Positions 18,434 to 63,083 of a DNA stretch of 64,000 bases are shown here, piece by piece (position 1 is the stretch's first letter; each line of letters begins with the position of its first letter). The notes under the pieces are model-generated. The model saw only the letters and a list, made by a program, of their open reading frames with translations, ran no database searches and was not told where the DNA came from. Made by a program: the position numbers and the translations under genes. The DNA lies in the NCBI GenBank assembly GCA_017403825.1, contig JAFRDO010000065.1:6438-70437 (forward strand), given 5' to 3'. The DNA comes from Kiritimatiellia bacterium (GTDB lineage Bacteria; Verrucomicrobiota; Kiritimatiellia; RFP12; UBA1067).

Positions 18434-18440
18434 ATTGCAC

Positions 18441-18698: not shown

Positions 18699-18700
18699 GC

Positions 18701-19105: not shown

Positions 19106-19111
19106 CTTACC

Positions 19112-27967: not shown

Positions 27968-27975
27968 TCGCAAAA

Positions 27976-28025: not shown

Positions 28026-28144
28026 GATCCGTCGTTGACTCTTGCCGTCTCTTTACTTTCCTTCCCAATGTGACAAGGGGGCAATTCCGGGGGCAAGGAT
28101 CGAACCTCCCACCGTGAGAGAATCGGCTTCTGCGCAAAAGGATC

Positions 28145-28268
28145 AAAAAATGTGCGCGACGAGGTTTGATTTCGGTCGAAAAATGTGCAGATGAAGGCAG
28201 ACTTTCGGTTGAAAAATGTGCAGATGAAGGCAGACTTTCGGTTGAAAAATGTGCAAGAGAAATGATAT
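28145..28268. repeat. Tandem 33-bp direct repeats (two perfect copies, one degenerate, one truncated) overlapping the promoter of the downstream ATPase gene
   Basis: The unit is GAAAAATGTGCAGATGAAGGCAGACTTTCGGTT, at 28178-28210 and 28211-28243. The degenerate copy at 28145-28177 is aaaaaatgtgcgcgacgaggtttgatttcggtc. The truncated copy at 28244-28268 runs into GATATAAT (-10), then GGAGG, then ATG at 28289. There are no spacers, so this is not CRISPR. Confidence 0.75.
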
Positions 28269-28288
28269 AATTTGCGCAGGAGGTCACT

Positions 28289-29626: not shown

Positions 29627-29650
29627 GATGGCCGAAAGAGAGATGAAGTC

Positions 29651-38109: not shown

Positions 38110-40494
38110 TTACTTCCTTGCCCACCCCTTAGGCAACTTCACATCAACCTTCAAGCCATCGCCGGTCCTGCGCCACTTCACAACCGCAACTTCGTCTCGT
38201 GACAACGGCAGCGTCCCCTCGCACCACTCAAGCGGAATGTCCGCCGCCGGACTGACGCGGACGACCTTCGCCTGCCTGTCGATCTCGCGCACCCCGAGAA
38301 CGTCTCGGAAAAGATATTCGCTTGCGATCGAGGCGAAGCCATGGCAGCAGCTGCAATTCCCCTTCGTGTCAAGATGTTCCCACAAAGTCCCCGTTTGATC
38401 TGCCATCGTCAGGAACCAGTCCCGCGTTTCGTCGAGAATCTGCCTCGAGCGCCCTGCGCGCGCCAGAAGCTCAAGCCTCTCGCAGGTGCCGAAGATGAAA
38501 TTCGCAGGCCATATGCGCTTGTGGAGTCCTTTAGCAACGCGGTCCGGACCGAACTCGTCAAGCATGCGTTTCCACAGCGCCGAATGGCTCTCCGGCGTCA
38601 CCGTGTTGAAGAAGAATGCGCAATATTGGCATGTTTCGGTGCACTCGCCGGACAGCTTCAGCGTTCCGTCCGGCTGCCTGACCGCGTTGTCGCAGAACCA
38701 TTCGCCGTTCCAGCTCTGGCGAACCACTTCCGCCCGAACCGCCCGCGCCTCAGCCGCCAGCTCCGGCATCTGATACAGCTTCGCGCAGGCCTCCAGCATC
38801 CGCGCATACATCATGTTTGACGGATAGTTCACGTCCTGGACGAGTTCGTTGGCCTTCGACCATTCCACGAACACCCAACCGGGGAGCTTCTCAAGAAGAC
38901 CGTCGGCGTTCTTGAACTTCCCGAGGAAACGCACAATGCCGAGAACCGCAGGCCGGCACTTTTCCGCAAATTTCCGGTCGCCATAGCGGGCGACGTGCTC
39001 TTCCAGCTGCATGACCGTCCACATCATGTAGTTGGGAATGAAGTTGTCCCAGAATATCCCGCCGGGATAAAGGGCCGGAATCGCGCCATCCATGCTGACG
39101 CCCTTCGAATCGTAGTGGGACCAGTCGAATCCGTCCGCCAGCAGGAAGTTCGAGAGGAACGTCTTCTCCACGGAGCCGTCTCCGGTCAGCCATGAGGACG
39201 CACGCCCCGTAAAGAACGTGTCGCCGGACCAATAAGCGCGTTCCCGCGTCGGGCAATCGGTGAACCCGTCTACCGCGTTCGCCCTGTACGATTCCCTCGC
39301 CGCCCGGAAGATGCGCTCAAGAGCCGGATCGGAAGCACGGAACGACGCGCGGTCAGCAAGCGGCGACACGTAAGTTCTCACCCACAGCGAATCGACGGCG
39401 GCCTTGCCTTCAAGCACGGCAACGTCTATGTACTTGGCCGCATATGGCTCAAACGTCTCAAGCTCATATTCTCCCGCCGATGCGATGCGCCACTCCGCGA
39501 CCGCCGCGCAGTCAAGGCGGGAGAAATAATTCAGAATGCCGTCCTTCCCAAGTATCTCGTCCCACGAAATGACGATGCGGCACGGTCCGTCCGTCCGCAC
39601 CTTCAGTCCGATAAACCCGGAGACGTTGCGGTCGCCCTCGAACGTGGCGGACTCGCCTGATGCAAGCGTTCCTGCATCGCCGCCGATGCATGACCTTGCG
39701 AAGCCCTGCAACTCGTAGTAGGGGTTCGTCTCCAGCTCGTCGAGCGGGAACCGGGTGTGCATCGGATCGTCGCTGGGATCGATGAAACCCAAGCGATAAA
39801 TCTTGCGTGACGGGTCTTTCGCGAGACGTTCCTTTCGGATCGGGCGAAACGACCTGTTCACGGCGAAATCAGGGTAGGGGAGCGGCCTCGGCTCGTATCT
39901 CTTCGTCGGCTGCACCGCCAGCCTGGGCGGCGATCCGGCCGCAGCGCCGACACGCCATGCATCGATGAACGTGCGTTGGCCAGAGAAGCGCGGCGCCTTG
40001 CATATGCGCCCTGCATCAAAAGCCTCGAAGCCGCCGCATGCTCCTGTCGCGGCGGCGACTTTTCCGCCGACCAGCAACTCCGCCTGCATAAACGAAGGCT
40101 GATTGATGAAATAGTAGCAGTTGCAGCAGTACCCTGCGGCCTCGACTTCAAGCACGTTGTCTCCCGCCTTGGCGTCAAGTTTCCACTCGTCAATGCGGAA
40201 GACACCCTCTGGTCCCCGGACGGGGCCAAAGCCGACGAAGCGGCCGTTCAGCCGCACGCGATAGTCGTAGGCGGCGGTCACGCGCAGGACCGCGGCGCCT
40301 AAATCGCCGTTGAAACGGCTGCGTATCGCACAGAAGGAGTTTGTCGCCCGCTCCTCGCCCGCTATCCACACCGGCTTTGCTTCGGCAAAAGATCCGACGG
40401 CTGAACCCGGCTCGGCGACACATGCAGCCGACATGCAGACAAGCCCCGCCGAGACGAACGCCGCACTTGCGGCCAAAAAATCTTTCCGCGTCAT
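38110..40494 (-). CDS. Tat/Sec-secreted GH78-family glycoside hydrolase (alpha-L-rhamnosidase-like)
   Basis: The ATG at 40494 gives MTRKDFLAASAAFVSAGLVCMSAACVA (the track start at 40500 is TTG). It has the rhamnosidase N-domain and 'FTDCPTRERAYWSGDTFFTG', matching the GH78 'DCPtRERlgWtGD' motif. Confidence 0.7.
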   Translation of the reverse strand: MTRKDFLAASAAFVSAGLVCMSAACVAEPGSAVGSFAEAKPVWIAGEERATNSFCAIRSRFNGDLGAAVLRVTAAYDYRVRLNGRFVGFGPVRGPEGVFRIDEWKLDAKAGDNVLEVEAAGYCCNCYYFINQPSFMQAELLVGGKVAAATGACGGFEAFDAGRICKAPRFSGQRTFIDAWRVGAAAGSPPRLAVQPTKRYEPRPLPYPDFAVNRSFRPIRKERLAKDPSRKIYRLGFIDPSDDPMHTRFPLDELETNPYYELQGFARSCIGGDAGTLASGESATFEGDRNVSGFIGLKVRTDGPCRIVISWDEILGKDGILNYFSRLDCAAVAEWRIASAGEYELETFEPYAAKYIDVAVLEGKAAVDSLWVRTYVSPLADRASFRASDPALERIFRAARESYRANAVDGFTDCPTRERAYWSGDTFFTGRASSWLTGDGSVEKTFLSNFLLADGFDWSHYDSKGVSMDGAIPALYPGGIFWDNFIPNYMMWTVMQLEEHVARYGDRKFAEKCRPAVLGIVRFLGKFKNADGLLEKLPGWVFVEWSKANELVQDVNYPSNMMYARMLEACAKLYQMPELAAEARAVRAEVVRQSWNGEWFCDNAVRQPDGTLKLSGECTETCQYCAFFFNTVTPESHSALWKRMLDEFGPDRVAKGLHKRIWPANFIFGTCERLELLARAGRSRQILDETRDWFLTMADQTGTLWEHLDTKGNCSCCHGFASIASEYLFRDVLGVREIDRQAKVVRVSPAADIPLEWCEGTLPLSRDEVAVVKWRRTGDGLKVDVKLPKGWARK

Positions 40495-40522
40495 TTTCAA
40501 ACCTCTCCGCCCTTCTCGGCCG

Positions 40523-41566
40523 TCAAGCGTCCATTGCGGCGGCGAGCTGGTCCATGCCCGCGCAGTTCAGCTTGAACGCCCAGTCGTTCTTGCATTCCAG
40601 CCACGAAGCCATCAAAAAGCCCTTGAGATGCTCCGGCGAAACGTTGGCGCGGCAGAACTTCACCAGTTCGCCGGCACAGTCGGAGTTCTCGGTGCGGCCG
40701 GAAGCCTTCAGCTTCGGCGACACCCAATTCGTAGGCATCGCCACCATGTCGAACCCCGCCTTGTCCAGATTGATGAAGTTCTTGAGGCGCGGCTGATAGC
40801 GCTTTTCCATCTTCTCTATCACGTACCCCTGCACGTCTTCATTGTAGTAGCCGGGGTTCTGAAGGACGCTCTTCGGGCATTTCTCGACATATTCCGGATG
40901 GCTCCAGGCGTAGCCTGTGAACATCCACGGCCTCACGCCGTGGCTCTCGACCGCACCGACGAGCTTGTAGAGCCAATGCCACCACAGCTCATGCTGGCGG
41001 CAGGTCACGTGTGCAAACTTCTTCTGCCACTCGAGGGTCTCTTCGTCCATGCCGATGTGCATGAAGCGCGGCGTCTCGAAGATTTCGCACACGTCCTTGA
41101 TCACATCGAAGCACACGCGGTAGTACGGCTCAGTCGCCACCATGCGGTGGTACTGCTTGAGCCACTGGTCGTGAGATGCGGAGAAGTTGAGTTTCGGGAT
41201 AGGTTCAAGCCCCATCGCCCTCAGCCGCCGCACTTCGTTGCGCATCCGGTCGGGCGGCCAGCTGCCCTTGACCGCCAGCTCGGGGTGGCTCGGATACTCG
41301 ATGAATTCGCCAAGGTCCATCACCACCATGTTGAAGTTGCGCTTCTTTGCGTGGTCGACGGTCTTCTTCCAGATGTCTTCTGAGAAATAGATCTCGTCGC
41401 GCGTGTAGCGCTTGCCTTCGATCCTCGGCTCGTCCGGCGCAGCCCATTCGCCCCACATGTTCATGCCCATGTGCAGCAACACGCCGCGGATATCCTCCGG
41501 CTTCTTCGCAAACGTCGGCGCGGCGGCCAAAGCGCTCATGCCCGCAATGAATTCTTTTCGCGTCAT
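40523..41566 (-). CDS. Tat-signal secreted TIM-barrel hydrolase-like protein (family unresolved; paralog of 53958..55016)
   Basis: MTRKEFIAGMSALAAAPTFA is a Tat-like signal. It is ~60% identical over its full length to the 53958 protein ('LHMGMNMWG.W.AP.EP...RY..DEI.FSEDIW.KTVDHAK...NMVVMDLGEF.EYPSHPELAVKGSW'). Confidence 0.6.
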   Translation of the reverse strand: MTRKEFIAGMSALAAAPTFAKKPEDIRGVLLHMGMNMWGEWAAPDEPRIEGKRYTRDEIYFSEDIWKKTVDHAKKRNFNMVVMDLGEFIEYPSHPELAVKGSWPPDRMRNEVRRLRAMGLEPIPKLNFSASHDQWLKQYHRMVATEPYYRVCFDVIKDVCEIFETPRFMHIGMDEETLEWQKKFAHVTCRQHELWWHWLYKLVGAVESHGVRPWMFTGYAWSHPEYVEKCPKSVLQNPGYYNEDVQGYVIEKMEKRYQPRLKNFINLDKAGFDMVAMPTNWVSPKLKASGRTENSDCAGELVKFCRANVSPEHLKGFLMASWLECKNDWAFKLNCAGMDQLAAAMDA

Positions 41567-43812: not shown

Positions 43813-43905
43813 TGCCGTTTTCCTCCTCCCTTTTTGTGACATAACATCTTCAGTTTGTTACATTATACCATATTTTTCACACATGATGCACAAACCGCGG
43901 AAACG

Positions 43906-45372
43906 TCAGGCGAAGAACCAGTCGGTTGAAATCGGAACCCCCTTTCGCCCGAAGCAGCTGCAGGGACGCACGACGAACCGCCAGGCGATCGTTGCGCGCT
44001 GAGGGCCGTCGTTCACCGTGAACGGCTTCGGCAGCTCGTCCTTCGCGAAGACGCATGCGACGGTCTTGGCGTCCGCCTGCTCCGGCATGTAGAACTTGGG
44101 CGAGAACACGCGCTTGACGAGGTGCGGACGCTCCACGTCGAAGTCCCGCACCTCGCACGTCACCTCGAAGTCGTAGGCGCGCGCAAGGCTGCCGTCCATC
44201 TTGCGGACGTTCGGGAACTCGACAACGACCTGGTCGACGTCCTCCTTGCGCCTGTTCTTCCCGCGCCGCTCGGACACCTTCACCGCCGCTCCTACGGCGA
44301 ACTGCGGCACGGGAAGCTTCCTGTACCGCTCCTCGTAGGAGCAGCCGTGCCCTGTGCCGTTCGACCACGGAACGACCCAGTCCGCGCCAAGCGGCAGCTT
44401 GCTGATTATGTCGTACCGCGAAAAGACCAAGGCGTCGTCATAGACGTCCATCGTCATGGCGGGGGCGCTGTCGGGCGCCCAGATGAAAGGCATCTGCGAC
44501 GTCTTGGGGTCCTCCACGCCGAACGTGCGCGAGTTCTCGCGGCCGCCGTTGACCGCCGTGTAGCGCAGCGAGCCGGCGTTGACGCACGTGAACTCGCCCT
44601 GCCAGAGCGACCGCTCGTCGACGATCGTCGCGTGGGAATGCCCGGTAATCGCCACAACGTTCGGGAACTCCTTGAGGGCGGCGGTGATCGTGCCGTCGTC
44701 GCCGCTCCAGACGTACGGAATCGTCCCCTTCGGATGCGGATGCTGCATATAGAAGAACGGACGTTCCCCTTTCAGCTCGTCTGCATGGGCGCGCAGCCAC
44801 TGCGGTGCGCCGTCCACGTGGAACGGGCCGCGGCTCCAACTGCCGCCAACGAACACATAGCCCTTGACGGTCTTCTTCCAGATCGGCTCCCACGGTTCCT
44901 TGAAGAGCTCCTCCCAGAAAGTCTTGCGGTGGTCGCCGAGCGCGGTGGCGTTGGCGTCCATCCATTCTTTGCTCTTCGTCTTTCCCTCTGGATACGAATA
45001 CTTGTGTCCGCCGATGTCGTGGTTGCCGTATATGAAGAGCTTCTCGACCGGCTTGCCGTCCGCGCCGAGATTATTGGGGAATACCTTGAACCACGTATCC
45101 GCTACGATGGCAAGCTGCGGCTTCACGCCGCCGTCCGCAAGGTCCCCCGGAATGCACACTCCGTCGACCCCGATGGAGCGGAAATGCTCAAGCGCCCTGC
45201 GGAAGCGCTGCGCCACCTCCTCGCTCGTCACGTGGATGTCGCTCACGATGCCGATCCTCAGCCGCCGCTTCCCGGCGGCCAGCCCTGCGCCCTGCGCCGC
45301 GATCAAGCCTCTTCCCGCAAGGGCGGCAAATGCGGTGCCCGCTCCGATGAACCCTCTTCTTGTCAAACTCAT
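43906..45372 (-). CDS. Tat-signal calcineurin-like metallophosphoesterase
   Basis: MSLTRRGFIGAGTAFAALAGRG is a twin-arginine signal. Phosphoesterase motifs: 'IGIVSDIHV', 'GDLADGG', 'GNHD'. It is a paralog of the next gene. Confidence 0.75.
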   Translation of the reverse strand: MSLTRRGFIGAGTAFAALAGRGLIAAQGAGLAAGKRRLRIGIVSDIHVTSEEVAQRFRRALEHFRSIGVDGVCIPGDLADGGVKPQLAIVADTWFKVFPNNLGADGKPVEKLFIYGNHDIGGHKYSYPEGKTKSKEWMDANATALGDHRKTFWEELFKEPWEPIWKKTVKGYVFVGGSWSRGPFHVDGAPQWLRAHADELKGERPFFYMQHPHPKGTIPYVWSGDDGTITAALKEFPNVVAITGHSHATIVDERSLWQGEFTCVNAGSLRYTAVNGGRENSRTFGVEDPKTSQMPFIWAPDSAPAMTMDVYDDALVFSRYDIISKLPLGADWVVPWSNGTGHGCSYEERYRKLPVPQFAVGAAVKVSERRGKNRRKEDVDQVVVEFPNVRKMDGSLARAYDFEVTCEVRDFDVERPHLVKRVFSPKFYMPEQADAKTVACVFAKDELPKPFTVNDGPQRATIAWRFVVRPCSCFGRKGVPISTDWFFA

Positions 45373-46877
45373 GCCTCTTTCCTCCTCACCTCGAAATCCG
45401 TCATGATCGGTCGCCCGCGCGTGTAGTACGAATTCATCGGATTGACGATGAACCGCGACGGCAAGTCTGCCGGCACGTCACTCTTGAGCATCCGGCAGAC
45501 GACCTGCTTCTTCTCTGCCCCGTAGATGTAGTCCATTGGATAGAAACGGCGAGTGGCGACCGTCTTGACCACATCGCAAGCCTGCAGCTCAACGCGCACC
45601 TCGTACTCGTTGGCACGTGGCGTGGACGCCGTTGACGCGGCTGGCGGAAACGTCAGCTCGTACATCTCCCGCATCTCACCCAGCCGGTCTTTTGCACGCA
45701 CCTCTTTCACCGTGATCACCGCGCCGACAGGGAACTGCGGAGCCGGAACAACCTTCCGACGCGTCTCGAACGCATAGGGCCTGTCGCCCGGCGCAGGAAA
45801 CGGAATCACCCAGTCCGGCCCAAGTGAAACGCCGTACTTGAACTCATGACGCTTCACCACCATGCAGTTGTCATAGACTGAGACGAAATAGCCCTGACGC
45901 GTAAAGTCGTAGCCTTCGCCCACGGCCATTTCCGGCATCGTTCGCACGATGTGCCGCGTCTCGCGGTCGAACAGCGAGAAACCGTTCTCTCGCCCGCCGA
46001 GCGTCACGCAATATCTGAGCGACGGCACCTCGATGGCGCTGAACGCGCCCTGCCACACGCACTGGTCGTTCACGGCGCACTGATGGGCGTGTCCGCAGAA
46101 CGCGATGACGTTAGGAAACTTCGCCGCGAAGAGCGCACCAGTCGTTCCGTCTTCCTGTCCCCACACGTACGGACCGCACGCGGTATTGCGGTACACGCGG
46201 TGCTGCGAATGGAAGAATGGACGGTTAGGATCGAGATCGAGCCCAGCCATGAACTTTTCCAGCCCCGGCGTGTTGTCTCCCCGCTCGTTTCCCTTCTCGC
46301 CCTGCGTGAAGTGCGACAGCACGAAGTCATAGCCTTTCACGCGCTTATGGACGATCGGCGACCACGGCTCGTGGAAGCACTTCTCCCAGATCGCCTTGCG
46401 ATCGTTGAGGCGGATGATGACCTTCTTCATTTCCTCTTCGTCGGGAAACATCTTCACGCACGGCTTGCAGCGGCGGTAGGTCGATCCGCGCGTGTCATGA
46501 TCTCCGTAGTGCATCAGGTTCGCGACGGGGCGGCCGTCGCGCCCCTTGCCGTCCGGGAACACCTCAAACCACGCTCTCGCGACACACTCAAGCTGCGGAA
46601 TGACGCCGTAGTCGGCAAGGTCGCCGCACACCATCACGCCGTCCGCCCCCCAACTGTCGAACTCGCGCAGCACGGCCCTGAACGGCCCAGTGGCCTCCCA
46701 GTCCGTGATGTGTATGTCGCTCAGCACGCCAAGCTTGAGGCGTACTGGGCCGCGCGGTTCCACGATCGGTCTGCCGAACGACGGCACGGACGCCATCGTC
46801 ACTCCCGCAAACGATCCCTTCAGAAACGAACGCCGATTCATGCCATCCCGTATATAACGCGCAAAAAGATTTTTCAT
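45369..46877 (-). CDS. Tat-signal calcineurin-like metallophosphoesterase (paralog)
   Basis: MNRRSFLKGSFAGVTMASVP is a Tat signal. Phosphoesterase motifs: 'LGVLSDIHI', 'GDLADYG', 'GDHD'. It has 4-nt overlaps with both neighbours. Confidence 0.75.
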   Translation of the reverse strand: MKNLFARYIRDGMNRRSFLKGSFAGVTMASVPSFGRPIVEPRGPVRLKLGVLSDIHITDWEATGPFRAVLREFDSWGADGVMVCGDLADYGVIPQLECVARAWFEVFPDGKGRDGRPVANLMHYGDHDTRGSTYRRCKPCVKMFPDEEEMKKVIIRLNDRKAIWEKCFHEPWSPIVHKRVKGYDFVLSHFTQGEKGNERGDNTPGLEKFMAGLDLDPNRPFFHSQHRVYRNTACGPYVWGQEDGTTGALFAAKFPNVIAFCGHAHQCAVNDQCVWQGAFSAIEVPSLRYCVTLGGRENGFSLFDRETRHIVRTMPEMAVGEGYDFTRQGYFVSVYDNCMVVKRHEFKYGVSLGPDWVIPFPAPGDRPYAFETRRKVVPAPQFPVGAVITVKEVRAKDRLGEMREMYELTFPPAASTASTPRANEYEVRVELQACDVVKTVATRRFYPMDYIYGAEKKQVVCRMLKSDVPADLPSRFIVNPMNSYYTRGRPIMTDFEVRRKEA

Positions 46878-49177
46878 CGAATGCCCACCAATGCCGAAAC
46901 GGCGTCATGGTCGGACGGGAACTTGCCGCCAGGACGGTCGTCGTGGGTGTGATGCCGCAAAATACGAAAAGCGTCCGACACGAAGATGTAGTCGATGCGG
47001 CGCGTCGCCGGCGGCTTGTAGCCGTGCGACGTGCAGACCGGCCCTGTGTGCGGCGTCTCGGTCAGGTCGAACGAATCGCGCAACACACCCTTCGCCAGAC
47101 GGATGGATTCACCGAATTCGTGTTTTGGGTCGAACGGAGACCACGGCACGATGCCGCCGATCATCTCGTTCAGGTCGCCGGTCATGATCACGTCCTCGCC
47201 GTCGGCCATGGCCTTCTTCGCTTTTTCAAGTACAAGCGCCATGCCCTTCGAGCGCGATTCCTGGCTCTTCCAGTCGGGATGCTGGCTGAACACCCGCATG
47301 AGACGGCCCGTCGCCTTGTGCTTCAGAAGCGCCCACTGGCATATGCGCACGCTCGACGATCCCCATGTGCACGTCTTGAAGTCGTCCGGCTTTGCCGAAA
47401 GCGCAAATCGTCCGGAATCGATGCGCTCGAAGAGTTCGGGGCGGTAGGCGATGGGATTAGGCCCGTTCTTGTCGCGTCCGTCTGCGAACTCGTACTCCGT
47501 CAGTGCGCCGACGAGATCTGGCCACATGTTCTTCGTCACCTCCTGAAAGCCGATCAGGTCGAACCGACCGTCACGTATGACCTTCACGACGCGCGGCAGG
47601 CGTTCAGGCCACGCCTTGTCGCCGGTGTCCGTGACCTTGCCGCCCTCCGTGTCGATGCGGATGTTGAACGTGGCCACGCGGAACGTGTGCGCCGGAGCCG
47701 CTGGCGGCTCGACGTACTCTATCATCGTGAAGGACTGCGGCGGCATCCGAAGCGTCAGCTCGGTCGGGGACGTCGGCCGCATGGCGACTTCGGTGTACAG
47801 GCGCGCGCTGTCCGTCACGTGCGTCACCACCTCCGGCGGGAACAGGCATCCCTTCGCGAGCTTCACCTTCACGATACGGCCCGACGAATAGTTGTTGTCG
47901 TCGTCATAGCGCACAAGGAAGATGGCGCGTTTCCCGCCTTCGCCACGCGCCGCCGTGACGTAGATGTCCTGGATGTCGGAGTCGGCCTTCACGGTGCGGC
48001 CGCAGGTCGAGGCGAGCCGCCCCCATGCGTATATGGCGTAGTACGGACGCACCGGCTCAAGCGTCGTGTTGTCGAACATCCCGTTGAAGTGGGCCGTCGG
48101 CATTGCGTCGTAGTACATGAGCATGTCCACCGGCGCGGCCTGGCAGGCCACCATGCCCGACGCGACGAGCGCGGCGCCCTTCTGCGACGAAAGCTGCACG
48201 ATGGAATAGTGGTAGTCCTCCTTCCAGCCCTTCACGTAGTTCCACTCGTTGAGGATGGACTCGGCGTTCCCGTAGCCGTACTTCTCCATGAGGCCCCTCG
48301 CCCACTTCGCCTTCTGCGCCATCGACTTCGGGCTGCGCGCGTAGATGTGCCACGAGAAGAAGTCCATCGGCGTCTTGTGCGCCTGCTGGTACGCGAGGAA
48401 CTGCTCGCACCACTCGGGGATTCCCGCCGCCGCGGGCCCGCCGATCTTGAGTGCGGGGAACTTGGCCTTCAGGTGCTTCGCCACGACCTCGAAGAACTCG
48501 AAGAACTGCTCCGCCGTGCCGCCCCAGGTGCGTGGCGGACCCTTGCGGTTCCAATCCACGTCCGCCTCGTTCCAGATCTCCCAGTAGTGGATGTTCCATT
48601 GGAAGCCGTTGGCCCAGCCGTAGTCGTAGTGGCGAATCACGTGCTCGCAGATGCGCGCCCACTTCGCGTAGTCCTTCGGCGGATAGACGTTGTACTTCTT
48701 CACGGCGTGCTCGATGCGCTGCCCAAGACGGAAGAACGGTTCAGTGCCGGCGGCGCGGACGTTCCTGAGGTATGCGTCGGTCACCGCGAAGTCATAGCTG
48801 TTCGGGTCGTTCTCGTCGGCGTCGAAGTTCGGAAACACCGCCGAAATGTCCACGCAGTGGTCACCGCCGTAGACGATGTACTCCGAAGTGTCGTGGGTGC
48901 GCGCATAGGGAATATGCGCCGCCTTGAACGTGGCGAAGTTGCCGTGCTGCGAGCCGAGCGACGAGCCGTCCACCCCGACGGGGCCGTTGTTCACCGCGTT
49001 CATCGGCTTGACGGGGCCGCAATCCACCGCGAAGTCGACCGTGACCGTCGCGTCGGCGGGACGCTCCTTAGACGACGTGACGTTCAGGTTCTCGGCGTCG
49101 GCGAACGCGCCGCCGGACATCATCGCCGCCGCCAGCACGGCGGCCGCCTTCCTGATTCTCTCGTTTTTCGCTTTCAT
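46874..49177 (-). CDS. Secreted fusion: GH39-like TIM-barrel glycosidase domain + C-terminal endonuclease/exonuclease/phosphatase (EEP) domain
   Basis: ATG at 49177 is preceded by AAGGAG. Signal peptide MKAKNERIRKAAAVLAAAMMSGGAFA. 'NIHYWEIWNEADVD' matches the GH39/GH5 catalytic NEP motif. The C-terminus 'FRVATFNIRID...LIGFQEV...GDLNE...SDHDAV' is EEP-type. The track ORF to 50065 is an upstream extension across the GRE gene and is not credible. Confidence 0.65.
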   Translation of the reverse strand: MKAKNERIRKAAAVLAAAMMSGGAFADAENLNVTSSKERPADATVTVDFAVDCGPVKPMNAVNNGPVGVDGSSLGSQHGNFATFKAAHIPYARTHDTSEYIVYGGDHCVDISAVFPNFDADENDPNSYDFAVTDAYLRNVRAAGTEPFFRLGQRIEHAVKKYNVYPPKDYAKWARICEHVIRHYDYGWANGFQWNIHYWEIWNEADVDWNRKGPPRTWGGTAEQFFEFFEVVAKHLKAKFPALKIGGPAAAGIPEWCEQFLAYQQAHKTPMDFFSWHIYARSPKSMAQKAKWARGLMEKYGYGNAESILNEWNYVKGWKEDYHYSIVQLSSQKGAALVASGMVACQAAPVDMLMYYDAMPTAHFNGMFDNTTLEPVRPYYAIYAWGRLASTCGRTVKADSDIQDIYVTAARGEGGKRAIFLVRYDDDNNYSSGRIVKVKLAKGCLFPPEVVTHVTDSARLYTEVAMRPTSPTELTLRMPPQSFTMIEYVEPPAAPAHTFRVATFNIRIDTEGGKVTDTGDKAWPERLPRVVKVIRDGRFDLIGFQEVTKNMWPDLVGALTEYEFADGRDKNGPNPIAYRPELFERIDSGRFALSAKPDDFKTCTWGSSSVRICQWALLKHKATGRLMRVFSQHPDWKSQESRSKGMALVLEKAKKAMADGEDVIMTGDLNEMIGGIVPWSPFDPKHEFGESIRLAKGVLRDSFDLTETPHTGPVCTSHGYKPPATRRIDYIFVSDAFRILRHHTHDDRPGGKFPSDHDAVSALVGIR

Positions 49178-49191: not shown

Positions 49192-51504
49192 TCAATATCC
49201 CTTCATCACGTTTTCGGCGCGGCGGATGTAGGCATCCTGCTCGGCCTTGCAGAGGTCGTTCCACCTGACGTTCCAGCCGCACACGCGCACCTGGAGGCTC
49301 TCGTACCTCTCCGGGTGCGCCTGCGCGTCGCGCAGCTCCTCCGCGCTGAACACGGTGAACTGGATGACGCTGCCGCCGTTCCTGTGGAAGATCTCGACGA
49401 GCGACCTCATCGCCACGAGGCCCTTGTCGCCTGCACAGACGGAAGGATGCAGCATCATGTCGAGCGGATAGTCGCCGGGGAGCTTCGTCACGTCCGATGC
49501 CGCAAGTGTCGCCACGAGCGCCGTCGCGCCTTCCGTGTCCACGCCCATGGTTGGCGAGAGGTTCTTCGACATCTCCTCGCCCCTCCTCCGCCCGTCGGGC
49601 GTCGCACCGGTCTTTTCGCCGAGCACGATGTACTGACGCGCGCAGTGGCCGGAGGCGAGGAAAACTCCGCCGCGCGAATTGGGCTTGCCGTTCAACTGCG
49701 CGGCGAAGCAGTCGATCAGCTCCGCGCCGAGCGCATTCGCTGCAGCGTCGTTGTTCCCCCACTTGCGCTTCGACCGGAGCATCCGCCTGCGCAGCGCCTC
49801 GTGTCCCTCCCAGTTGGCCGCCATGATCTTTCCAAGTTCCGGAAGCGGCATGTTCTCCTCGTACACCAACTCCTTCACGGCCAGAAGCGAGTCGACAGCG
49901 GTGCCAAGGCCGACGGCGAGGATTGCGGTGTCGTTTCCGCGCGGGCAACCGTTCGCGAAACCATCGCAGCGGACCTTGAGCGAGTGTTCGGTCGCGAGCG
50001 TCATGCAGTTGGCGGGGTTCACCTCGGGCAGAACCTTCTCCAGCTCGAAAGCCACCTTGCGGCACCGGTCGGTCACGTCGGCGAGCCGACGCAGATATTC
50101 GGTCTTGAAGGAAGAAAAAGTTTCGAATTGAAACTTAGTTGGAGTTTTGAGTTGGAGTTGGAGAGCGGAATTTTCCATTCTCGAACTCGAACTCTGGACT
50201 CCAACTTCTTCCAGCATCGTCTCTATCGGCTTCAGGAAGTTGACGTGTCCGACGGCGGTGTCGTTCACAGCGTCGCGCAGCGCGAACTCGTAGCAGCCCT
50301 TCACCACCATCGTGCGGCAGTCATCGTCGCTCGCGCCGCTCCACTTCTTGAGCGCCCTTGCCGTCGGCTCCTCGCCGATGAACGCGATGGAGCGGTGCCG
50401 GCGGGCCATGTCGAGCATCTTGTCCCAGGCCCAGCCAGGCGTGTTCGGCGCGACCTTCGCCAAGAACTTCGGCGTCGCAAGCGCACAGTCGTCCATCACG
50501 TCAAGGACGATCCTGGACACGTGGTTGTACTCGCTCGCGCCGTCCTTTCGCGTGCCGCCGAGGCCGACGGGCTGGTTCCAGTAGTTGGCGACGGATCCCC
50601 ACTGACAGAAGAAGTGCCTGAGCTGCTCGCGGAACTCGGCCTCCGTGGTACGTCCGGCGGCACGGTCGGCGTCGTAGTACGGCGTGAGGGTCACGTCGAT
50701 CTCAGTCAGCGAGCGGCACTGGATGCCGTCAAGATGCTCCGAGAAAAAGAAGTAGAGCCACACGAACATCATCACGTCGTAGGCCGTTTGCGGCGGATCG
50801 CTCTTCAGACGCTCAAGACACGCAACCTCCTTCTCCAGGCGCTGCGCCCCCGCGTCCCCGCGCGGGATTCGACCCAGCCGCTTCCGCCCCTGCGCGGCGA
50901 ACCGTTCGATACCTCCCAGCATAGCGTCCATCGCGATCCGCAGCCCCTCGTAGAACGGATCGCCCGCAACGGCGTGCCTTTCCAGCCGCGCCTTCATCCC
51001 CGGAAAGCCCAGGGACAGTATCACGCGCCAGTCGGGAACGGAGTGATCGAAGTCCTGCCAGATGTTCCAGGTGCCGTCGCGGTTTCCGGCCTGCCATTCC
51101 CCGACGACCTCGGCGGATAGCATCCGCGCGTTGACCTCGGCGGCGCGGTCGCGCTTCGTCACCTTCCATATCGGCAGCGAAAGCCTGTCCCAGATCGCGA
51201 TCGCCGGAAACCAGTCGAGCGGCGAGACGTCTATCGCCTGTTCCAGGGCCTCGGCGGCGAAGCACCTGGCCTTGGTGACGCGCCACGGTTCGCCGGACGC
51301 CTTGCCTGCCGCGACTATCTCCGACAGGCGCTTTGCGACTCCCTCCTGCGAAAGCCCCGTCGTCCTGTCTGTCACGTCCTGCCTGAACTTCCGGCGCAGG
51401 TACGTGTCGACGTCGGCGATGTCCGCGACATACGGATCCCACCACGTCATGTCGAGGTAGTTCCTCTGCCGTCGCAGATCCGTCTGGCCTTCGGTGCCCA
51501 TCAT
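49192..51504 (-). CDS. Glycyl radical enzyme, eliminase/dehydratase class (PFL-fold). No signal peptide.
   Basis: The C-terminus 'GEKTGATPDGRRRGEEMS...LQVRVCGWNVRWNDLCKAEQDAYI' aligns to PFL 'GKKTGNTPDGRRAGAPFG...[23 protein letters not shown]', with the radical Gly retained. The Cys-loop 'VVKGCYEFAL' is of the single-Cys GCxE type (as in choline TMA-lyase and GRE dehydratases), not the PFL 'CC' type. The start is either ATG 51504 (just after the PATR stop) or ATG 51450 (better RBS, AGAGGAA). Confidence 0.7.
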   Translation of the reverse strand: MMGTEGQTDLRRQRNYLDMTWWDPYVADIADVDTYLRRKFRQDVTDRTTGLSQEGVAKRLSEIVAAGKASGEPWRVTKARCFAAEALEQAIDVSPLDWFPAIAIWDRLSLPIWKVTKRDRAAEVNARMLSAEVVGEWQAGNRDGTWNIWQDFDHSVPDWRVILSLGFPGMKARLERHAVAGDPFYEGLRIAMDAMLGGIERFAAQGRKRLGRIPRGDAGAQRLEKEVACLERLKSDPPQTAYDVMMFVWLYFFFSEHLDGIQCRSLTEIDVTLTPYYDADRAAGRTTEAEFREQLRHFFCQWGSVANYWNQPVGLGGTRKDGASEYNHVSRIVLDVMDDCALATPKFLAKVAPNTPGWAWDKMLDMARRHRSIAFIGEEPTARALKKWSGASDDDCRTMVVKGCYEFALRDAVNDTAVGHVNFLKPIETMLEEVGVQSSSSRMENSALQLQLKTPTKFQFETFSSFKTEYLRRLADVTDRCRKVAFELEKVLPEVNPANCMTLATEHSLKVRCDGFANGCPRGNDTAILAVGLGTAVDSLLAVKELVYEENMPLPELGKIMAANWEGHEALRRRMLRSKRKWGNNDAAANALGAELIDCFAAQLNGKPNSRGGVFLASGHCARQYIVLGEKTGATPDGRRRGEEMSKNLSPTMGVDTEGATALVATLAASDVTKLPGDYPLDMMLHPSVCAGDKGLVAMRSLVEIFHRNGGSVIQFTVFSAEELRDAQAHPERYESLQVRVCGWNVRWNDLCKAEQDAYIRRAENVMKGY

Positions 51505-51508
51505 ACGC

Positions 51509-53941
51509 CTACCAAATCGACAGGATGAATCCTCTCTTGATTCTCGGCACGATCCATCCGTACTCGTCCACCGAGACGCCGCGCTCGCCGTAGAATATGT
51601 TTCCAAGTTCGCTGCGGGACGGCTGGTTCACTACCCGGATCTGCCCGCCGGCTTCACTAAGTTCGTTAGTGATCGTCAGCGTGGCATTCGCCAGATTCTC
51701 AATCGAATCCACCACGAGCGTGGAGTTCGTCGGCACGTCCAACACACCCGCTGTCGTAAGCGACACCTTCCCGATCGCATTGGAGACGCCGTCCGCAAGC
51801 GCAAGCCCGCCGCCGAACAAAAGCGAGATGTTCTGCGATGCGTTCATCGTCCCCGTCCGCCCGAGTTTTAAGAATCCGCCGGAGACGAGCGTGGGGCCGA
51901 CGCAGCTGTACGTGCCGTTCATGAGCCATGTGCCGCTTCCGCGTTTGAGGACTGTGACATTCGTGTATGCCTCATTCAGAGGCGTGAGGATGTTGCCGGT
52001 GAACGTGAAATCCACGCCGCCGTCACCCGTCACGTCCTCGACGTCCACCGTGAACGTCCTGGGTTTGGGATTCTGCTCTGTAGAGGAGTTGTCGCCGTAG
52101 AGGTAGAGCGGGCTTGCCGAGGCGGAGCACGGAGTCGAACCGTAGACGTACCAGTTCCCCGCATGAAGCTTGCCGCAGTACACCTGGGCCGCATTGACGG
52201 TGGCGCCGTCGCAAAGCCAGAGATGGTTGAGGTAGCCGACGAAGCCGGAGCCTCCGACAGACCCGAACTCCACCGCACCGCCATCGTTCCATATTGAAAA
52301 CATGTAGCCAATGGAGTACCTCGCCGTCTGGCGGAGCGTGCCGCCCGGCTTGATGCAGAGCGCGCAGGTGTTGGACCCATAGTTGTACGACTGCTCGGTC
52401 ATGTTGAAGTTGAAGAGGACGGACGAGCCGTTTCCGGCGACAATCGACCCCATGCACGGAAGCGCGAACTTGCTGTCCAGCGACAGCGTGACGTCGCCGT
52501 ACGCCCTGTATTCGCCGCTGTCCATCGTGTTGACGCCGGAAAGCGCCGCCGCCGCCAACTCGATCGGCTCCGAGAACTCAAGTTCCACATCATAGACATA
52601 GACTGCAGCGCCGTTCGCGCTGTCGGTTGTAGATGCCGTCACCCTCTGCTGACTCCCGACCAATTCCGACCCTTGCGTCCCGGTGCCCTGCCTTGCTTCG
52701 GCGTACTTCACAAAAATGTCGTCTCCGACCTGAGTAAACTCGAGCGTGGCGCACCGCATGAAATTGGCGCCTGTCGATTTGTCAAGGCCCTGAATCTGCC
52801 AGCGTTGCGTCGTGGCCGTGGAAGAGAGGAGAACATACCCGTTCCCGTTGTTGGCAATCGGCAGCACGCCTTTGCTGTAGCATCCGACGACGGCCTTTAC
52901 GTTCGTTACGTTGGAAAGCCTCGCGTTTGTCTTGAACACCATGGAGGTCGTGTGATACTCCGTGTCCATGTCGGCCGCCGTGTAGAAGAAGCCGTCCCGC
53001 TTATATGAATAGACCGGGTCGTTCTCGAAAACGACGTCGCCCGCCCCGGAAACGGCGCTGGCGACGGAGATCCCGCAGGAATTGCGCAGTTCAACAGTGG
53101 AGCCGGCCCCCACGTTCAGACCGTTTGCGAACGTTCCCGCCACGGCGGCCCGACCGGCGTCTATCGCGACGAATGCGCCGTCCGCCGCCGAAACGGAACC
53201 TGAGAGCGCGCCGGCGAAGATGACCTTGGCGGCGTCATGCCCAGCCGTGATCTCCACGGTCAGGTTGTCCACGGTTCCTTCGACCGCAGTGCCGACGTCC
53301 GTGAAATCTCTCCTGCCGCGATAGTCACCGTAATCCGTGCCGTTCGTCTTCGTCCAGGCGACGGAGCCGTAGATGTCTGCACCGTTCTGCACGAGCACGA
53401 GCTTGGCGGACTGCGTCTGCCCGGCGTTGTAGCTGGTGACAAAACACTGCGACTGCATCTGCACTTCCAGCCGCCCGGCCTCGCGCACGATGAAATACGG
53501 CCTTGCTACGCCGGCAAGTTCTCCGCTGAAGCGCGATGCGACGGGAGTGACGGCGTCGAGCGAAAGGTTCTCGAACATCAATGCGCCGGGATTGCCGTCT
53601 TGGTACGCCGGAAGCGCAGCGCCGCTGTAGGTGAACTGCTGCCCCGTGCGCGAACAGGTCAGCCATGCGCCGGCGACATCGTTGGAGAACACGAGCGTTC
53701 CCGAGGCCGCCATTGTCACCGTTGCACCGGCGGCAAAGGCGATCGCATCGCCTGTGACGGTCAGGGTTTCACCGTTCGCCGGCGTGGCGACGAGCGTCTT
53801 CACGGCTCCGTTCTCGTATGTGAACGCAAGGGGACCAAGCGACGATGGAGTTGTGCCGGATGTCCAGACATAAGTTTCATCCGCCGTACAGACGGAACAT
53901 ATGGCGAACGCTGCCAACATCGTTTTGATTTTCCTGTTCAT
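51509..53941 (-). CDS. PATR-repeat large secreted protein; the C-terminus ends ...DEYGWIVPRIKRGFILSIW
   Basis: ATG at 53941. Signal peptide MNRKIKTMLAAFAICSVCTA. Repetitive beta-strand composition (G/T/S/A/V-rich). Confidence 0.7.
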   Translation of the reverse strand: MNRKIKTMLAAFAICSVCTADETYVWTSGTTPSSLGPLAFTYENGAVKTLVATPANGETLTVTGDAIAFAAGATVTMAASGTLVFSNDVAGAWLTCSRTGQQFTYSGAALPAYQDGNPGALMFENLSLDAVTPVASRFSGELAGVARPYFIVREAGRLEVQMQSQCFVTSYNAGQTQSAKLVLVQNGADIYGSVAWTKTNGTDYGDYRGRRDFTDVGTAVEGTVDNLTVEITAGHDAAKVIFAGALSGSVSAADGAFVAIDAGRAAVAGTFANGLNVGAGSTVELRNSCGISVASAVSGAGDVVFENDPVYSYKRDGFFYTAADMDTEYHTTSMVFKTNARLSNVTNVKAVVGCYSKGVLPIANNGNGYVLLSSTATTQRWQIQGLDKSTGANFMRCATLEFTQVGDDIFVKYAEARQGTGTQGSELVGSQQRVTASTTDSANGAAVYVYDVELEFSEPIELAAAALSGVNTMDSGEYRAYGDVTLSLDSKFALPCMGSIVAGNGSSVLFNFNMTEQSYNYGSNTCALCIKPGGTLRQTARYSIGYMFSIWNDGGAVEFGSVGGSGFVGYLNHLWLCDGATVNAAQVYCGKLHAGNWYVYGSTPCSASASPLYLYGDNSSTEQNPKPRTFTVDVEDVTGDGGVDFTFTGNILTPLNEAYTNVTVLKRGSGTWLMNGTYSCVGPTLVSGGFLKLGRTGTMNASQNISLLFGGGLALADGVSNAIGKVSLTTAGVLDVPTNSTLVVDSIENLANATLTITNELSEAGGQIRVVNQPSRSELGNIFYGERGVSVDEYGWIVPRIKRGFILSIW

Positions 53942-53957: not shown

Positions 53958-55016
53958 TTACAATTTCATCGCGGCGGCGAGCTGGTCGATGCCAGCGCAG
54001 TTGAAGCGGCACGTCGCTTCGCCCTGCGTGTCGGCCCATGACGCCATCATGAACCCCAGGAGCCTCTCCGGGGCAATGTGCTTGCGGCAGAACTCGACCA
54101 TCTTCCGCGAGTTCTCCGAGTTGTTCTTGAGCCCCGCCTTCTTCGCACGCTCGGAAATCCAGTTTGTGACGCACGGCAGCTGGTCGAAACCCGCCTTCTC
54201 CAAGTCGATGTACAGCTGGAGCTGCGGCTTGAACTCGGGCGCCATGTTCTCGATCACGTAGCCCTGCGCGTCCTGGTTGTAGTACCAATTCTGCTGAACT
54301 GTGCTTTTGGGCATCTTCTTCACGTATTCGGGATGCTTCCACCCGTAGTCGGCGCTCACGATGGCCCGCATGCCCAGCTTCTCGACGGCATTCACGAACC
54401 AGTAGAGGTCATGCCACCACATCTCATGCTGACGGATCATGACTACGCCACGCCCGCTCTGCAGTTTGTAGCACTCCTCGTCAAAGCCGATGTGGATCAT
54501 GCACGGCGTCTCAAATATCTCGGCGACGTCCTTCAGAATGTCGGAGCAAACGTTATAGTAGATCCGCGTGGAAAGCATGCGGTGATATTCCTGCAGCCAG
54601 CAGTCGTGCGTAGCCGAGAAGTTGAGACTCGGGATCGGCTCAAGCCCCATCTTCTTCAGCCGCTTTACCTCCGCCGCCATGCGCTCCGCCTTCCAGCTGC
54701 CCTTCACCGCCAGTTCGGGATGGCTCGGATATTCCAGGAACTCGCCAAGATCCATCACGACCATGTTCAGCCCCTTCGCCTTGGCGTGGTCGACGGTCTT
54801 CCGCCAGATGTCTTCGCTGAAGAATATCTCGTCTTTCGCGTACCGGCGGCCGGGGGCGACCGGCTCGCCGGGCGCATGCCAGTCGCCCCACATGTTCATG
54901 CCCATGTGCAGCATCACGGCGCGGACAGCCTCTGGAGATGCGGCGAACGATGGACTCACCGCAAGCCCGGCAGAGCCAATCATCGCCTCCTTGATGAATG
55001 TTCGCCTCGTCTGCAT
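53958..55016 (-). CDS. Tat-signal secreted TIM-barrel hydrolase-like protein (paralog of 40523..41566)
   Basis: ATG at 55016 lies 9 nt after GAAGGAGG. MQTRRTFIKEAMIGSAGLAVSPSFAASPEA is a canonical RRxF(I)K Tat signal. Its RBS overlaps the stop of the upstream activase gene. Confidence 0.65.
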   Translation of the reverse strand: MQTRRTFIKEAMIGSAGLAVSPSFAASPEAVRAVMLHMGMNMWGDWHAPGEPVAPGRRYAKDEIFFSEDIWRKTVDHAKAKGLNMVVMDLGEFLEYPSHPELAVKGSWKAERMAAEVKRLKKMGLEPIPSLNFSATHDCWLQEYHRMLSTRIYYNVCSDILKDVAEIFETPCMIHIGFDEECYKLQSGRGVVMIRQHEMWWHDLYWFVNAVEKLGMRAIVSADYGWKHPEYVKKMPKSTVQQNWYYNQDAQGYVIENMAPEFKPQLQLYIDLEKAGFDQLPCVTNWISERAKKAGLKNNSENSRKMVEFCRKHIAPERLLGFMMASWADTQGEATCRFNCAGIDQLAAAMKL

Positions 55017-55021
55017 TCCCA

Positions 55022-55879
55022 TCAACCTCCTTCGTTTTCCCTTTTCGGCGGCATCGTATCCTTCATGCCGAGCGCAAGGTACTTCGAGCGGGCGTAGTCG
55101 TAGTACTCAAGGTTGACGATCGACGACTCAGGGATGCCGATGGAATCGAGGTAGCGGTGGCGGGCGACGATGTCGTCGCCGTCCGTGCAGCCGGGAACCA
55201 CAAGGCACCGGACCTCCAGCTTCGCCTTAGCCGCCACGAGCCGTTCGAGGTTCTTCTTTATGGCACCGTTCGAGACGCCGGTGTACTTCACGTGAAGCGC
55301 ATCGTCGTCCGCCTTGTAGTCGGGAAGCCACAGATCCGTCACCGGCAGGAGCGCGTCTATCGCGGCGGGCGGAGCGTAGAGCGACGTGTCGAGGCAGGTG
55401 TGGAGCCCAGCCTTCTTGAACGCCGCGAACAGCTCAGCCGCCCATTCCCAGAAGAAGAGCGGCTCGCCGCCGGACAGCGTCACGCCGCCGCCGGACTCGT
55501 CGTAGAACGCCTTGTCCTCAAGCGCCTTGGCCACGATTTCATCAATCGTCATCGGCTTGCCGTAGAACTTCAGCGCGCGCGTGGGACACGTTGCCTCGTC
55601 CATCGTGCATTTAGCGCAATTCCTGCAGAGATGCCGGAAGCGCGCAGTCTGCGGCTTCACGTCGATGGACTCCGGGTTGTGGCACCAGATGCACTTCAAG
55701 GGGCATCCTTTCACAAAGAACGTCGTGCGGATTCCCGGCCCGTCATGGATAGCCATCCGCTTCGTGTCCAGCATCAGCGGCGTCTTTGCGGCGCGGCCGG
55801 CAGCGGACGCGACAGTCAGCGGCCCACAGGCCGCATACGCGGCGGAGACAGCGATGAACTCTTTGCGTGTCATCTTCAT
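55022..55879 (-). CDS. Glycyl-radical-enzyme activating enzyme (radical SAM, PflA-like) with an unusual ~40-aa Tat-signal-like N-terminal extension
   Basis: The core 'MAIHDGPGIRTTFFVKGCPLKCIWCHNPE' aligns to E. coli PflA '[26 protein letters not shown]' and contains the CxxxCxxC cluster. 'GVTLSGGEPL' is the SAM motif. Upstream and in frame, MKMTRKEFIAVSAAYAACGPLTVASAAGRAA is preceded by GGGAGGT and then 10 nt before the ATG at 55879. An alternative core start is the ATG at 55756 (MAIHDG...). Confidence 0.7.
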   Translation of the reverse strand: MKMTRKEFIAVSAAYAACGPLTVASAAGRAAKTPLMLDTKRMAIHDGPGIRTTFFVKGCPLKCIWCHNPESIDVKPQTARFRHLCRNCAKCTMDEATCPTRALKFYGKPMTIDEIVAKALEDKAFYDESGGGVTLSGGEPLFFWEWAAELFAAFKKAGLHTCLDTSLYAPPAAIDALLPVTDLWLPDYKADDDALHVKYTGVSNGAIKKNLERLVAAKAKLEVRCLVVPGCTDGDDIVARHRYLDSIGIPESSIVNLEYYDYARSKYLALGMKDTMPPKRENEGG

Positions 55880-62861: not shown

Positions 62862-63083
62862 CTTCAAGCCTCCTTGTTGCCGTTGTACGGCGAAACGCTT
62901 TTCCTAGTTGTGTGATAATAATATCATAAACTCATTCGCGTCCGCAACAGCTATATAGACAGGTGGAGCGTTGGACGCGATTCGGAACGTCGTTTCCGGA
63001 ACCGGCATTGCGGCGGTTGACTTCGGGCGCGATCTTTGGGATAATGCGCTGAAGTGAAACACCCTCAAGACCGGAGAAACGCC

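Follow-up and report, generated by a model that had tools for sequence, protein, structure and literature searches.

Here we examine a glycyl radical enzyme (GRE) encoded on a 64,000-nucleotide stretch of DNA from a Kiritimatiellia bacterium (contig JAFRDO010000065.1; this whole stretch is hereafter the window), together with the radical S-adenosylmethionine (SAM) activase encoded two genes upstream and the relatives of both proteins in other genomes. The GRE gene, at 49192..51504 on the minus strand, is real and intact. We consider it probable that its product is a functional enzyme of the C-O-eliminating (dehydratase-type) class acting by radical chemistry on glycan-derived sugars, and that it belongs to a family which has been re-targeted to the cell envelope in Kiritimatiellia. 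This reading is carried by the catalytic residues of the protein, by predicted export signals on its nearest relatives, by the complementary signals of GREs and activases, and by in-frame fusions of clade members to secreted carbohydrate-active enzymes (CAZymes). Judged by homology, the GRE/activase clade is uncharacterised, and it was seen here only in Kiritimatiellia and Lentisphaerae.

The gene lies within an open reading frame (ORF) spanning 49192..51606; translation from the ATG at 51504 yields 770 amino acids (aa), and public gene calls begin one Met later, yielding 769 aa. Four independent contigs encode an identical protein, as does an NCBI metagenome-assembled genome (MAG) of Kiritimatiellae (MBQ3289603.1, annotated as 'hypothetical protein'), which argues against an assembly artefact. 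Pfam assigns a PFL-like domain (PF02901, E 2.6e-56, aa 154-627) and a C-terminal Gly_radical domain (PF01228, E 9.6e-18, aa 646-749), bearing out a first-pass annotation, made from the DNA letters and their translations, that had recognised a glycyl radical domain with an RVCGW motif and a single-Cys GCxE loop. The RVCGW motif (aa 740-744; 49273..49287, minus strand) contains the radical Gly743, aligns with the RVAGY motif of HypD and is invariant in the family alignments. The Cys loop reads GCYE (aa 403-406; 50287..50298, minus strand) and places Cys404 and Glu406, the predicted thiyl radical and general base, on C434/E436 of HypD and C433/E435 of glycerol dehydratase (GDH). A further, family-invariant motif, DFDHSVPDW (aa 151-159; 51028..51054, minus strand), supplies His154, the equivalent of GDH His164 and HypD His160 in profile alignments to the solved structures 1r8w and 6vxc; together with the GCxE loop, this additional residue upholds the earlier assignment to the eliminase class. 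In the family alignment G403, C404 and E406 are invariant and Y405 nearly so, and the window protein retains every family-invariant residue, with no inactivating substitution at the catalytic Gly743 or Cys404.

Membership in a characterised substrate family was not recovered by any of the models tested. The window GRE scored 196 bits against the HypD equivalog NF043068 (cutoff 1100), 193 bits against TIGR01774 for PFL2/glycerol dehydratase (cutoff 678.2), about 146 bits against models of sulfopropanediol dehydratase (cutoff 1000) and 121.4 bits against TIGR04394 for CutC (cutoff 1050), and assignment to CutC was rejected on this last result. A profile of the family matched 34 solved GREs at E <= 1e-20 and scored HypD, GDH, PFL2, propanediol dehydratase, HplG and CutC near-equally, at 325-386 bits, with identities of the window protein to solved GRE structures of 18-22% in comparisons made through a weak AlphaFold2 model.

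Comparison with individual enzymes delimits what is shared with known eliminases. Of the solved structures, HypD (6vxc), a trans-4-hydroxy-L-proline dehydratase, matches best in sequence, scoring 171 bits when the window protein is used by itself and 386 bits when the family profile is used, and like the window protein it possesses a full-length GRE barrel, the Cys-x-Glu loop, the radical Gly and the His at position 160. At approximately 22% identity, however, the window protein replaces the amine-binding Asp278 of HypD by Gln262 (which also aligns with GDH His281) and Tyr450 by His420, so that HypD membership was rejected on these grounds as well as on the missed NF043068 cutoff; HypD is, moreover, cytoplasmic and uses a free amino acid as substrate. 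Similarly, glycerol dehydratase (1r8w) and 1,2-propanediol dehydratase (5i2a, 9rco) belong to the same eliminase class, and their Cys433, Glu435 and His164 correspond to Cys404, Glu406 and His154, which makes C-OH elimination by the window GRE plausible. Their diol residues Ser282, Asp447 and Tyr339 are nevertheless represented by Cys263, Ala417 and Gly314, and neither export signals nor CAZyme fusions, as found in the family studied here, are features of these enzymes. The retention of Cys, Glu and His alongside the replacement of pocket residues suggests a C-O-eliminating catalytic apparatus with a different substrate pocket. In addition, Arg264, beside the position of HypD Asp278, is invariant in the clade and has no counterpart in the GREs compared. 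These residue correspondences were obtained through profile alignment. The AlphaFold2 model, built from a 30-sequence alignment at 74-86% identity, was poor (pLDDT 62, pTM 0.61); Foldseek searches with it returned a generic GRE fold at TM ~0.55 that did not discriminate among GREs.

Export signals provide the second line of evidence. The nearest GRE set, clustered at 90% identity, comprises 120 clusters that share 72-100% identity with the window protein; 65 of them carry signals resembling those of twin-arginine translocation (Tat-like; for example MKTTRKTFLGGMASAASMGWRSFGAPA and MKLTRRGFVQGAGAAASLWWGGFAFAAP) and 20 carry Sec-like signals (for example MKAPVTCLSIVFALPLLAAPA). Another 18 are shortened gene calls that begin inside the hydrophobic region and three are fusions, leaving 14 truly signal-less clusters, which include the closest relatives of the window protein (P0003-P0008) and the window protein itself, whose N-terminus (MMGTEGQTDLRRQRNYLD) has neither a hydrophobic segment nor a signal peptide. 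The signals all end in an AxA-type site right before the mature N-terminus R-K-Q-R-N-Y-L-D-M-T-W-W-D-P. Those classed as Tat-like are longer than the Sec-like ones (28.5 versus 25.8 aa), less hydrophobic (1.02 versus 1.40) and more frequently basic at some position of the h/c region (53% versus 28%), and these are the properties by which Tat signals typically differ from Sec signals. Furthermore, canonical twin-arginine signals are found on more divergent GREs, namely P0121 with LTRRRFLEG (MKADLTRRRFLEGLAAASLG) and P0129 with TTRRHFLEL (MNAETTRRHFLELIAAAAAAG). Lentisphaerae GREs, by contrast with the signal-bearing proteins, begin directly at the enzyme core, e.g. with MPYATFEQDRE.

The activase was overlooked by the first-pass annotation, which had presented the GRE as the only obviously cytoplasmic gene in a run of exported proteins; that picture also fits poorly with the family, most of whose GREs and activases bear signals. 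It is a GRE-activating radical SAM enzyme of 285 aa (55022..55879, minus strand; NCBI MBQ3289606.1), identified by TIGR02494 (234.7 bits, cutoff 174.35) and by Pfam Radical_SAM and Fer4_12, with the CX3CX2C cluster motif (C59, C63, C66) encoded at 55682..55705 on the minus strand. Its putative Tat-type signal peptide (MKMTRKEFIAVSAAYAACGPLTVASAAG; 55796..55879, minus strand) extends approximately 30 aa ahead of the usual activase N-terminus (KTPLMLDTKRMAIHDGPGIRT). The ATG of this extended start has a GGGAGG Shine-Dalgarno sequence 11 nt upstream, and the internal Met codons have none. The sequence reads M-T-R-K-E-F-I followed by AVSAAYAACGPLTVASAAG, which by motif heuristics is an RK variant of the S/T-R-R-x-F-L-K Tat motif. 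The same extension is present in all 120 of the nearest activase clusters (81-100% identity), with RK in 101 and RR in at least 16, and the syntenic orthologue in locus L090 has RR (MKMTRREF; MKMTRREFVVASGAFAVMPAFAAGG). RK and RR forms interchange within the window as well, where a pair of Tat-signal paralogues alternates TRKEFIA and TRRTFIK, and hydrolases of the activase's own operon bear the same MTRK(D/E)F signal type. Lentisphaerae activases lack the extension. The two groups also differ in cluster motifs: the Kiritimatiellia activase of the window (55022-55879) has a single auxiliary Cys motif (CRNCAKCTMDEATCP), and a Lentisphaerae activase (L071, 10185-11066) matches the two-cluster ferredoxin models Fer4_10 and Fer4_7, a difference in cluster content that may relate to a change of compartment.

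The signals of the two partners appear to be complementary. Among the Kiritimatiellia loci in which GRE and activase lie together, 11 pairs combine a Sec-type GRE with a Tat-type activase, often from overlapping genes (e.g. L039, L042 and L045), and six combine a Tat-type GRE with a signal-less activase; both partners are Tat-type in a single pair, a signal-less GRE accompanies a Tat-type activase in three loci (the window, L013 and L090), and neither partner is tagged in two (L028 and L041). Such Sec/Tat complementarity is what would be expected if the active GRE must end up outside the cytoplasm.

Fusions to secreted enzymes point in the same direction. Among representatives at 50% identity, clade GREs are fused in frame behind CAZyme domains that bear signal or lipoprotein sequences, the partners being SASA (P0124), AXE1 (P0125 and P0127), DUF1080/3-keto-disaccharide hydrolase (P0126), GH2 beta-mannosidase (P0128), GH78 (P0197), GH29 (P0028) and tannase/feruloyl esterase (P0104); a further fusion, of a beta-lactamase fold to a GRE, has no signal (P0101, locus L020). 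At the two junctions checked on DNA (L011 and L010) the reading frame is continuous, free of stop codons and flanked on both sides by protein-like sequence, which ruled out read-through of TGA or a frameshift there. Over 1169 alignment columns that cover both halves, the AXE1-GRE fusions P0125 and P0127 are 47% identical, which argues that this fusion is old and maintained rather than an accident of assembly.

The clade is large and is found amid carbohydrate loci. The nearest 120 GRE clusters derive from Kiritimatiellae wherever a taxon is named, and at least 580 relatives occur in species-representative genomes. The best 80 of these relatives come from Kiritimatiellia of the rumen and gut, whose MAGs often contain several, and from Lentisphaerae/Victivallales; cultured Oligosphaera ethanolica DSM 24202 holds a relative at 42% identity (locus L062). 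GRE paralogues at 49-81% identity also occur within the same loci. The sole recurrent neighbour of the GRE is the activase, present within the flanks of 45 related loci, and tblastn searches of all loci with the neighbours from the window and from L071 found no other conserved pathway partner. In a Pfam census of 86 Kiritimatiellia and 79 Lentisphaerae neighbour proteins, those of Kiritimatiellia are varying CAZymes and esterases (GH5, SASA, GH2, BNR, GH20b, GH92 and GH3), and those of Lentisphaerae comprise a divergent AraC regulator (13 of the 79 proteins), AXE1, GH78, GH5, GDSL, PL11 and sugar transporters. To judge from its N-termini and gene order, the Lentisphaerae GRE-activase pair is cytoplasmic and AraC-linked, with the regulator (approximately 280 aa) transcribed divergently from about 100-150 bp upstream of the GRE in nearly all orthologues (L060, L063, L072, L075, L081, L083-L086 and L089), offering a route to the inducer in cultured O. 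ethanolica. The Kiritimatiellia locus L004 (4084-7093; 12357-12941) encodes an additional GRE that is highly divergent (27% identity, RVSGF motif) and is accompanied by a signal-less activase of its own; in this locus a 194-aa radical SAM remnant also follows the window-type GRE.

In the window itself, the GRE sits in a minus-strand run of about 16 genes (31034 to ~63677) that encode mostly exported proteins. Genes in the stretch containing the GRE and activase overlap by 4 nt or lie no more than about 20 nt apart, and this tight packing suggests that the two genes share one operon with the exported proteins. The gene preceding the GRE (51509..53941, minus strand) encodes an exported surface protein of 810 aa without a Pfam match; its stop codon falls 4 nt before the GRE start, suggesting translational coupling, and the same gene order is found in L090.

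From these observations we propose a mechanism in which export and activation could be wired in three ways. A Tat-signal GRE with a signal-less activase would be activated in the cytoplasm and exported as a folded enzyme, and a Sec-signal or CAZyme-fused GRE with a Tat-signal activase would be activated in the periplasm. In the third wiring, that of the window, the activase has a Tat signal and the GRE has none: the activase, having received its FeS clusters in the cytoplasm, would place the radical on Gly743, and the GRE would then either leave with the activase by Tat hitch-hiking or remain cytoplasmic. We lean slightly against export of this particular copy. During catalysis, the Cys404 thiyl radical would take a hydrogen from a carbon that carries a hydroxyl in a glycan-derived sugar, Glu406 would deprotonate this hydroxyl, and His154 would protonate the leaving oxygen on the neighbouring carbon, be it a hydroxyl or a glycosidic, ether or ester oxygen. 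The expected product would be a deoxy-keto sugar, which could undergo further beta-elimination.

Several observations weigh against envelope targeting and a glycan substrate. Both the localisation and the substrate are claimed from sequence inference. Signal peptides were assigned by motif and hydrophobicity heuristics rather than a trained predictor, and most carry RK rather than RR; the pairing counts are phylogenetically non-independent and reflect few module types. The window GRE lacks its own signal peptide, and the untagged pairs in L028 and L041 indicate that cytoplasmic use persists in Kiritimatiellia. The poor AlphaFold2 model gives no active-site geometry, including the orientation of Arg264. 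Furthermore, a periplasmic radical SAM activase would require SAM and a low-potential electron donor, and no SAM transporter or electron donor is conserved in the loci; an EamA/DMT carrier considered as a SAM exporter was seen only in L052 and L071 and was dropped as non-recurrent. One possible answer would be that the activase is single-shot and crosses the membrane with SAM bound and its clusters reduced.

The rival that survives best is a conventional GRE that stays in the cytoplasm and takes as substrate a small sugar derivative brought into the cell, for example a deoxy-sugar, a sugar acid freed by the neighbouring hydrolases or, as for PflD/YbiW, an anhydro-sugar phosphate, with the activase extension irrelevant here and the tagged paralogues serving other roles. 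We regard this as rather unlikely, but it would account directly for the window GRE and P0003-P0008 starting at the mature N-terminus, for the pairs with two untagged partners, and for the clearly cytoplasmic, AraC-linked Lentisphaerae orthologues encoded near SSF and DctM transporters, and the invariant Arg264 would fit an anionic substrate. It is less readily reconciled with an activase that is Tat-tagged in all three loci with a signal-less GRE, with the apparent translational coupling of the window GRE to exported proteins, with an orthologous group (72-88% identity) whose members mostly bear signals, or with the absence of any conserved kinase, aldolase, dehydrogenase or dedicated transporter beside the Kiritimatiellia GRE genes.

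The first-pass annotation had instead pointed to sugar-derived diols, and a B12-independent 1,2-propanediol/glycerol dehydratase for diols derived from rhamnose or fucose must be weighed accordingly. The GCxE loop and the His164 equivalent are indeed present, rhamnosidases of families GH78 and GH106 occur within the window, and the top Foldseek match was a Roseburia propanediol dehydratase, although it ranked marginally ahead of HypD on a poor model. Against this, the protein missed the TIGR01774 cutoff, lacks the diol residues of GDH and is no closer to propanediol or glycerol dehydratases than to HypD, PFL2, HplG or CutC, and membership in that group was rejected. Bacterial microcompartment (BMC) shell genes were not detected in the window, as the first-pass annotation had noted, or in 90 related loci by tblastn with PduA-like and EutN-like probes, and neither an aldehyde nor an alcohol dehydrogenase was seen in scans of the window or among the neighbour families listed for about 80 related loci. 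Several GRE paralogues per genome are spread over unrelated CAZyme loci, and export signals and CAZyme fusions would make no sense for a propanediol enzyme. We consider this role improbable, and free 1,2-propanediol is not likely to be the substrate of the window GRE. What remains of the proposed deoxy-sugar link is a looser tie to rhamnose-containing or acetylated glycans, as GH78, AXE1 and the rhamnogalacturonan lyase PL11 recur near the GREs or fused to them.

Finally, it is scarcely credible that the signals and fusions are gene-calling artefacts (over-extended ORFs, frameshifts or TGA read-through), even though GC-rich DNA yields long spurious upstream frames, several database entries are shortened or extended, and length-based clustering enriches odd fusions among representatives, because in hundreds of independent sequences the extensions have a Met start, n/h/c architecture and an AxA-type end at a fixed distance from the mature N-terminus, RR and RK interchange at one position, a Shine-Dalgarno sequence precedes the extended activase start, the fusion junctions checked are in frame with protein-like flanks, and the AXE1-GRE fusion is conserved in both halves.

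Comparison with other systems clarifies what an envelope-targeted GRE family acting on glycan-derived sugars would and would not have in common with established precedents. The PflD/YbiW 1,5-anhydrohexitol-6-phosphate dehydratases (8id0, 8yjo and 8id7) provide, according to their PDB entry descriptions, a precedent for a GRE that dehydrates a vicinal diol on a sugar ring. Their fold scores are similar to those of other GREs and their identity to the window protein is only about 20%; they differ in being cytoplasmic and acting on phosphorylated monosaccharide analogues, and no kinase or phosphotransferase system (PTS) genes were seen near the family studied here. With regard to export, Tat hitch-hiker pairs such as the small and large subunits of hydrogenases resemble the activase and GRE of the window in that one partner has a twin-arginine signal and the other has none, and cofactor-bound Tat cargo, such as NADP-bound glucose-fructose oxidoreductase, likewise crosses the membrane as a folded, cofactor-loaded protein. 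A GRE-activase complex is normally transient, however, and we know of no radical SAM enzyme or GRE that is a Tat substrate. A functional analogy may also be drawn with lytic polysaccharide monooxygenases (LPMOs), which perform radical or redox chemistry outside the cytoplasm beside glycoside hydrolases, sometimes as modular fusions, and attack bonds that hydrolases handle poorly; activity of the present GREs on glycans is putative, and LPMOs depend on copper and on O2 or H2O2 and are unrelated in fold, cofactor and mechanism.

To our knowledge, GREs and their radical SAM activases have been regarded as confined to the cytoplasm, since SAM and a low-potential reductant are required for activation. 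This assumption is challenged by a large, conserved clade whose GREs and activases both carry export tags, with complementary Sec/Tat wiring and fusions to secreted enzymes. Literature searches for exported or periplasmic GREs, for Tat-targeted radical SAM enzymes or GRE activases and for Kiritimatiellia GREs returned nothing relevant, with partial coverage. In its most far-reaching form, which we put forward tentatively as a possibility on the unlikely side, Kiritimatiellia would operate a glycyl radical system outside the cytoplasm, comprising the first exported GREs (by Tat, by Sec and by CAZyme fusion) and the first Tat-exported activase, perhaps single-shot, with the window GRE hitch-hiking, and would perform redox-neutral C-O cleavage on glycans in an anoxic periplasm as a counterpart of LPMOs. 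If the enzymes are truly exported, the question arises of how SAM and electrons reach the periplasm, and anaerobes may apply radical chemistry directly to polysaccharides, which would matter for enzyme discovery and for how fibre is degraded in the rumen and gut. Even a conservative reading leaves a widespread GRE clade, numbering at least 580 copies in species-representative genomes, outside all characterised substrate families tested.

Turning to the neighbourhood of the GRE, hydrolases, phosphoesterases and surface proteins do accompany it as first described, but the run is not dominated by GH78 enzymes: only two of its approximately 16 genes are GH78-like, and one further GH78 and one GH106 lie outside the run but within the window. 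The run holds one GH78, one GH78-like protein, a PATR surface protein, several large exported proteins without a Pfam match, two Tat-signal metallophosphoesterases, a GH39 protein with an endonuclease/exonuclease/phosphatase domain and a GDSL/DUF4838 protein. The GH39 fusion protein (46874..49177, minus strand) has a signal peptide and its gene starts 14 nt downstream of the GRE stop; it is followed by the two metallophosphoesterases (43906..46877, minus strand), recognised by Pfam and by their N-terminal sequences (MSLTRRGFIGAG and MNRRSFLKGS), and the GH78-like protein with an MTRK(D/E)F-type signal (MTRKDFLAASAAF) is encoded at 38110..40500 (minus strand). Between the GRE and the activase, a gene at 53958..55025 (minus strand) that overlaps the activase gene by 4 nt encodes a 355-aa protein with the canonical Tat signal MQTRRTFIK (MQTRRTFIKEAMIG) and no family match. 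Its 347-aa paralogue (40523..41566, minus strand) has, by its N-terminal sequence, the RK-variant signal MTRKEFIAG (MTRKEFIAGMSALAAAP). Neither paralogue matches Pfam or NCBIfam, but an IHIGFDEE motif recalls the catalytic sites of GH20, and relatives occur in the GRE loci L006, L027, L036 and L090. An Rfam scan identified no riboswitch near the operon, and promoter and terminator scans over 46-64 kb gave no more sites than shuffled sequence.

Large exported proteins of the window, most of which match no Pfam family (a PATR repeat occurs in one), were found to share a C-terminal tail. In the window these are encoded at 34962-37844, 41587-43842, 51509-53941 and 60444-62867, all on the minus strand, with tails ...GMTYSVR*, ...GFIMSIR*, ...RGFILSIW* and ...GTKVIIR*, and a protein of L090 (7559-9994) ends in ...RGFVISIK*. 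This common tail may be a C-terminal sorting signal.

Elsewhere in the window, a lower-GC island (0.52-0.54) at 14956-22522 (minus strand) lies between carbohydrate loci. Its products include a protein with SNF2-helicase and PLD domains and a restriction-modification fusion of Eco57I/MmeI type, and it has the appearance of an inserted defence or mobile element. Local GC is also lower (0.535) over 27892-30834, where a tRNA gene (27892-27964, plus strand) is followed by a DUF4143/AAA_14 ATPase (28289-29626) and a homologue of bacterial Thg1-like tRNA-His guanylyltransferase (30094-30834, E 7e-31). An Rfam match to a group II intron (RF00029, 51.4 bits against a gathering threshold of 40) lies at 10124-10212 (minus strand), a short distance upstream of where the GH106 rhamnosidase gene probably starts. 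In this apparent anaerobe, signal-bearing proteins with domains of the formylglycine-generating enzyme type (FGE-sulfatase) are encoded beside GH39 genes, both in the window (5788-7107, minus strand) and in L090 (1-88 and 1643-2920). At the edge of the carbohydrate cluster, 736-3651 (minus strand) encodes a secreted Peptidase_C10 of streptopain type that has a Spi inhibitor domain at its N-terminus as well as several Ig-like repeats.

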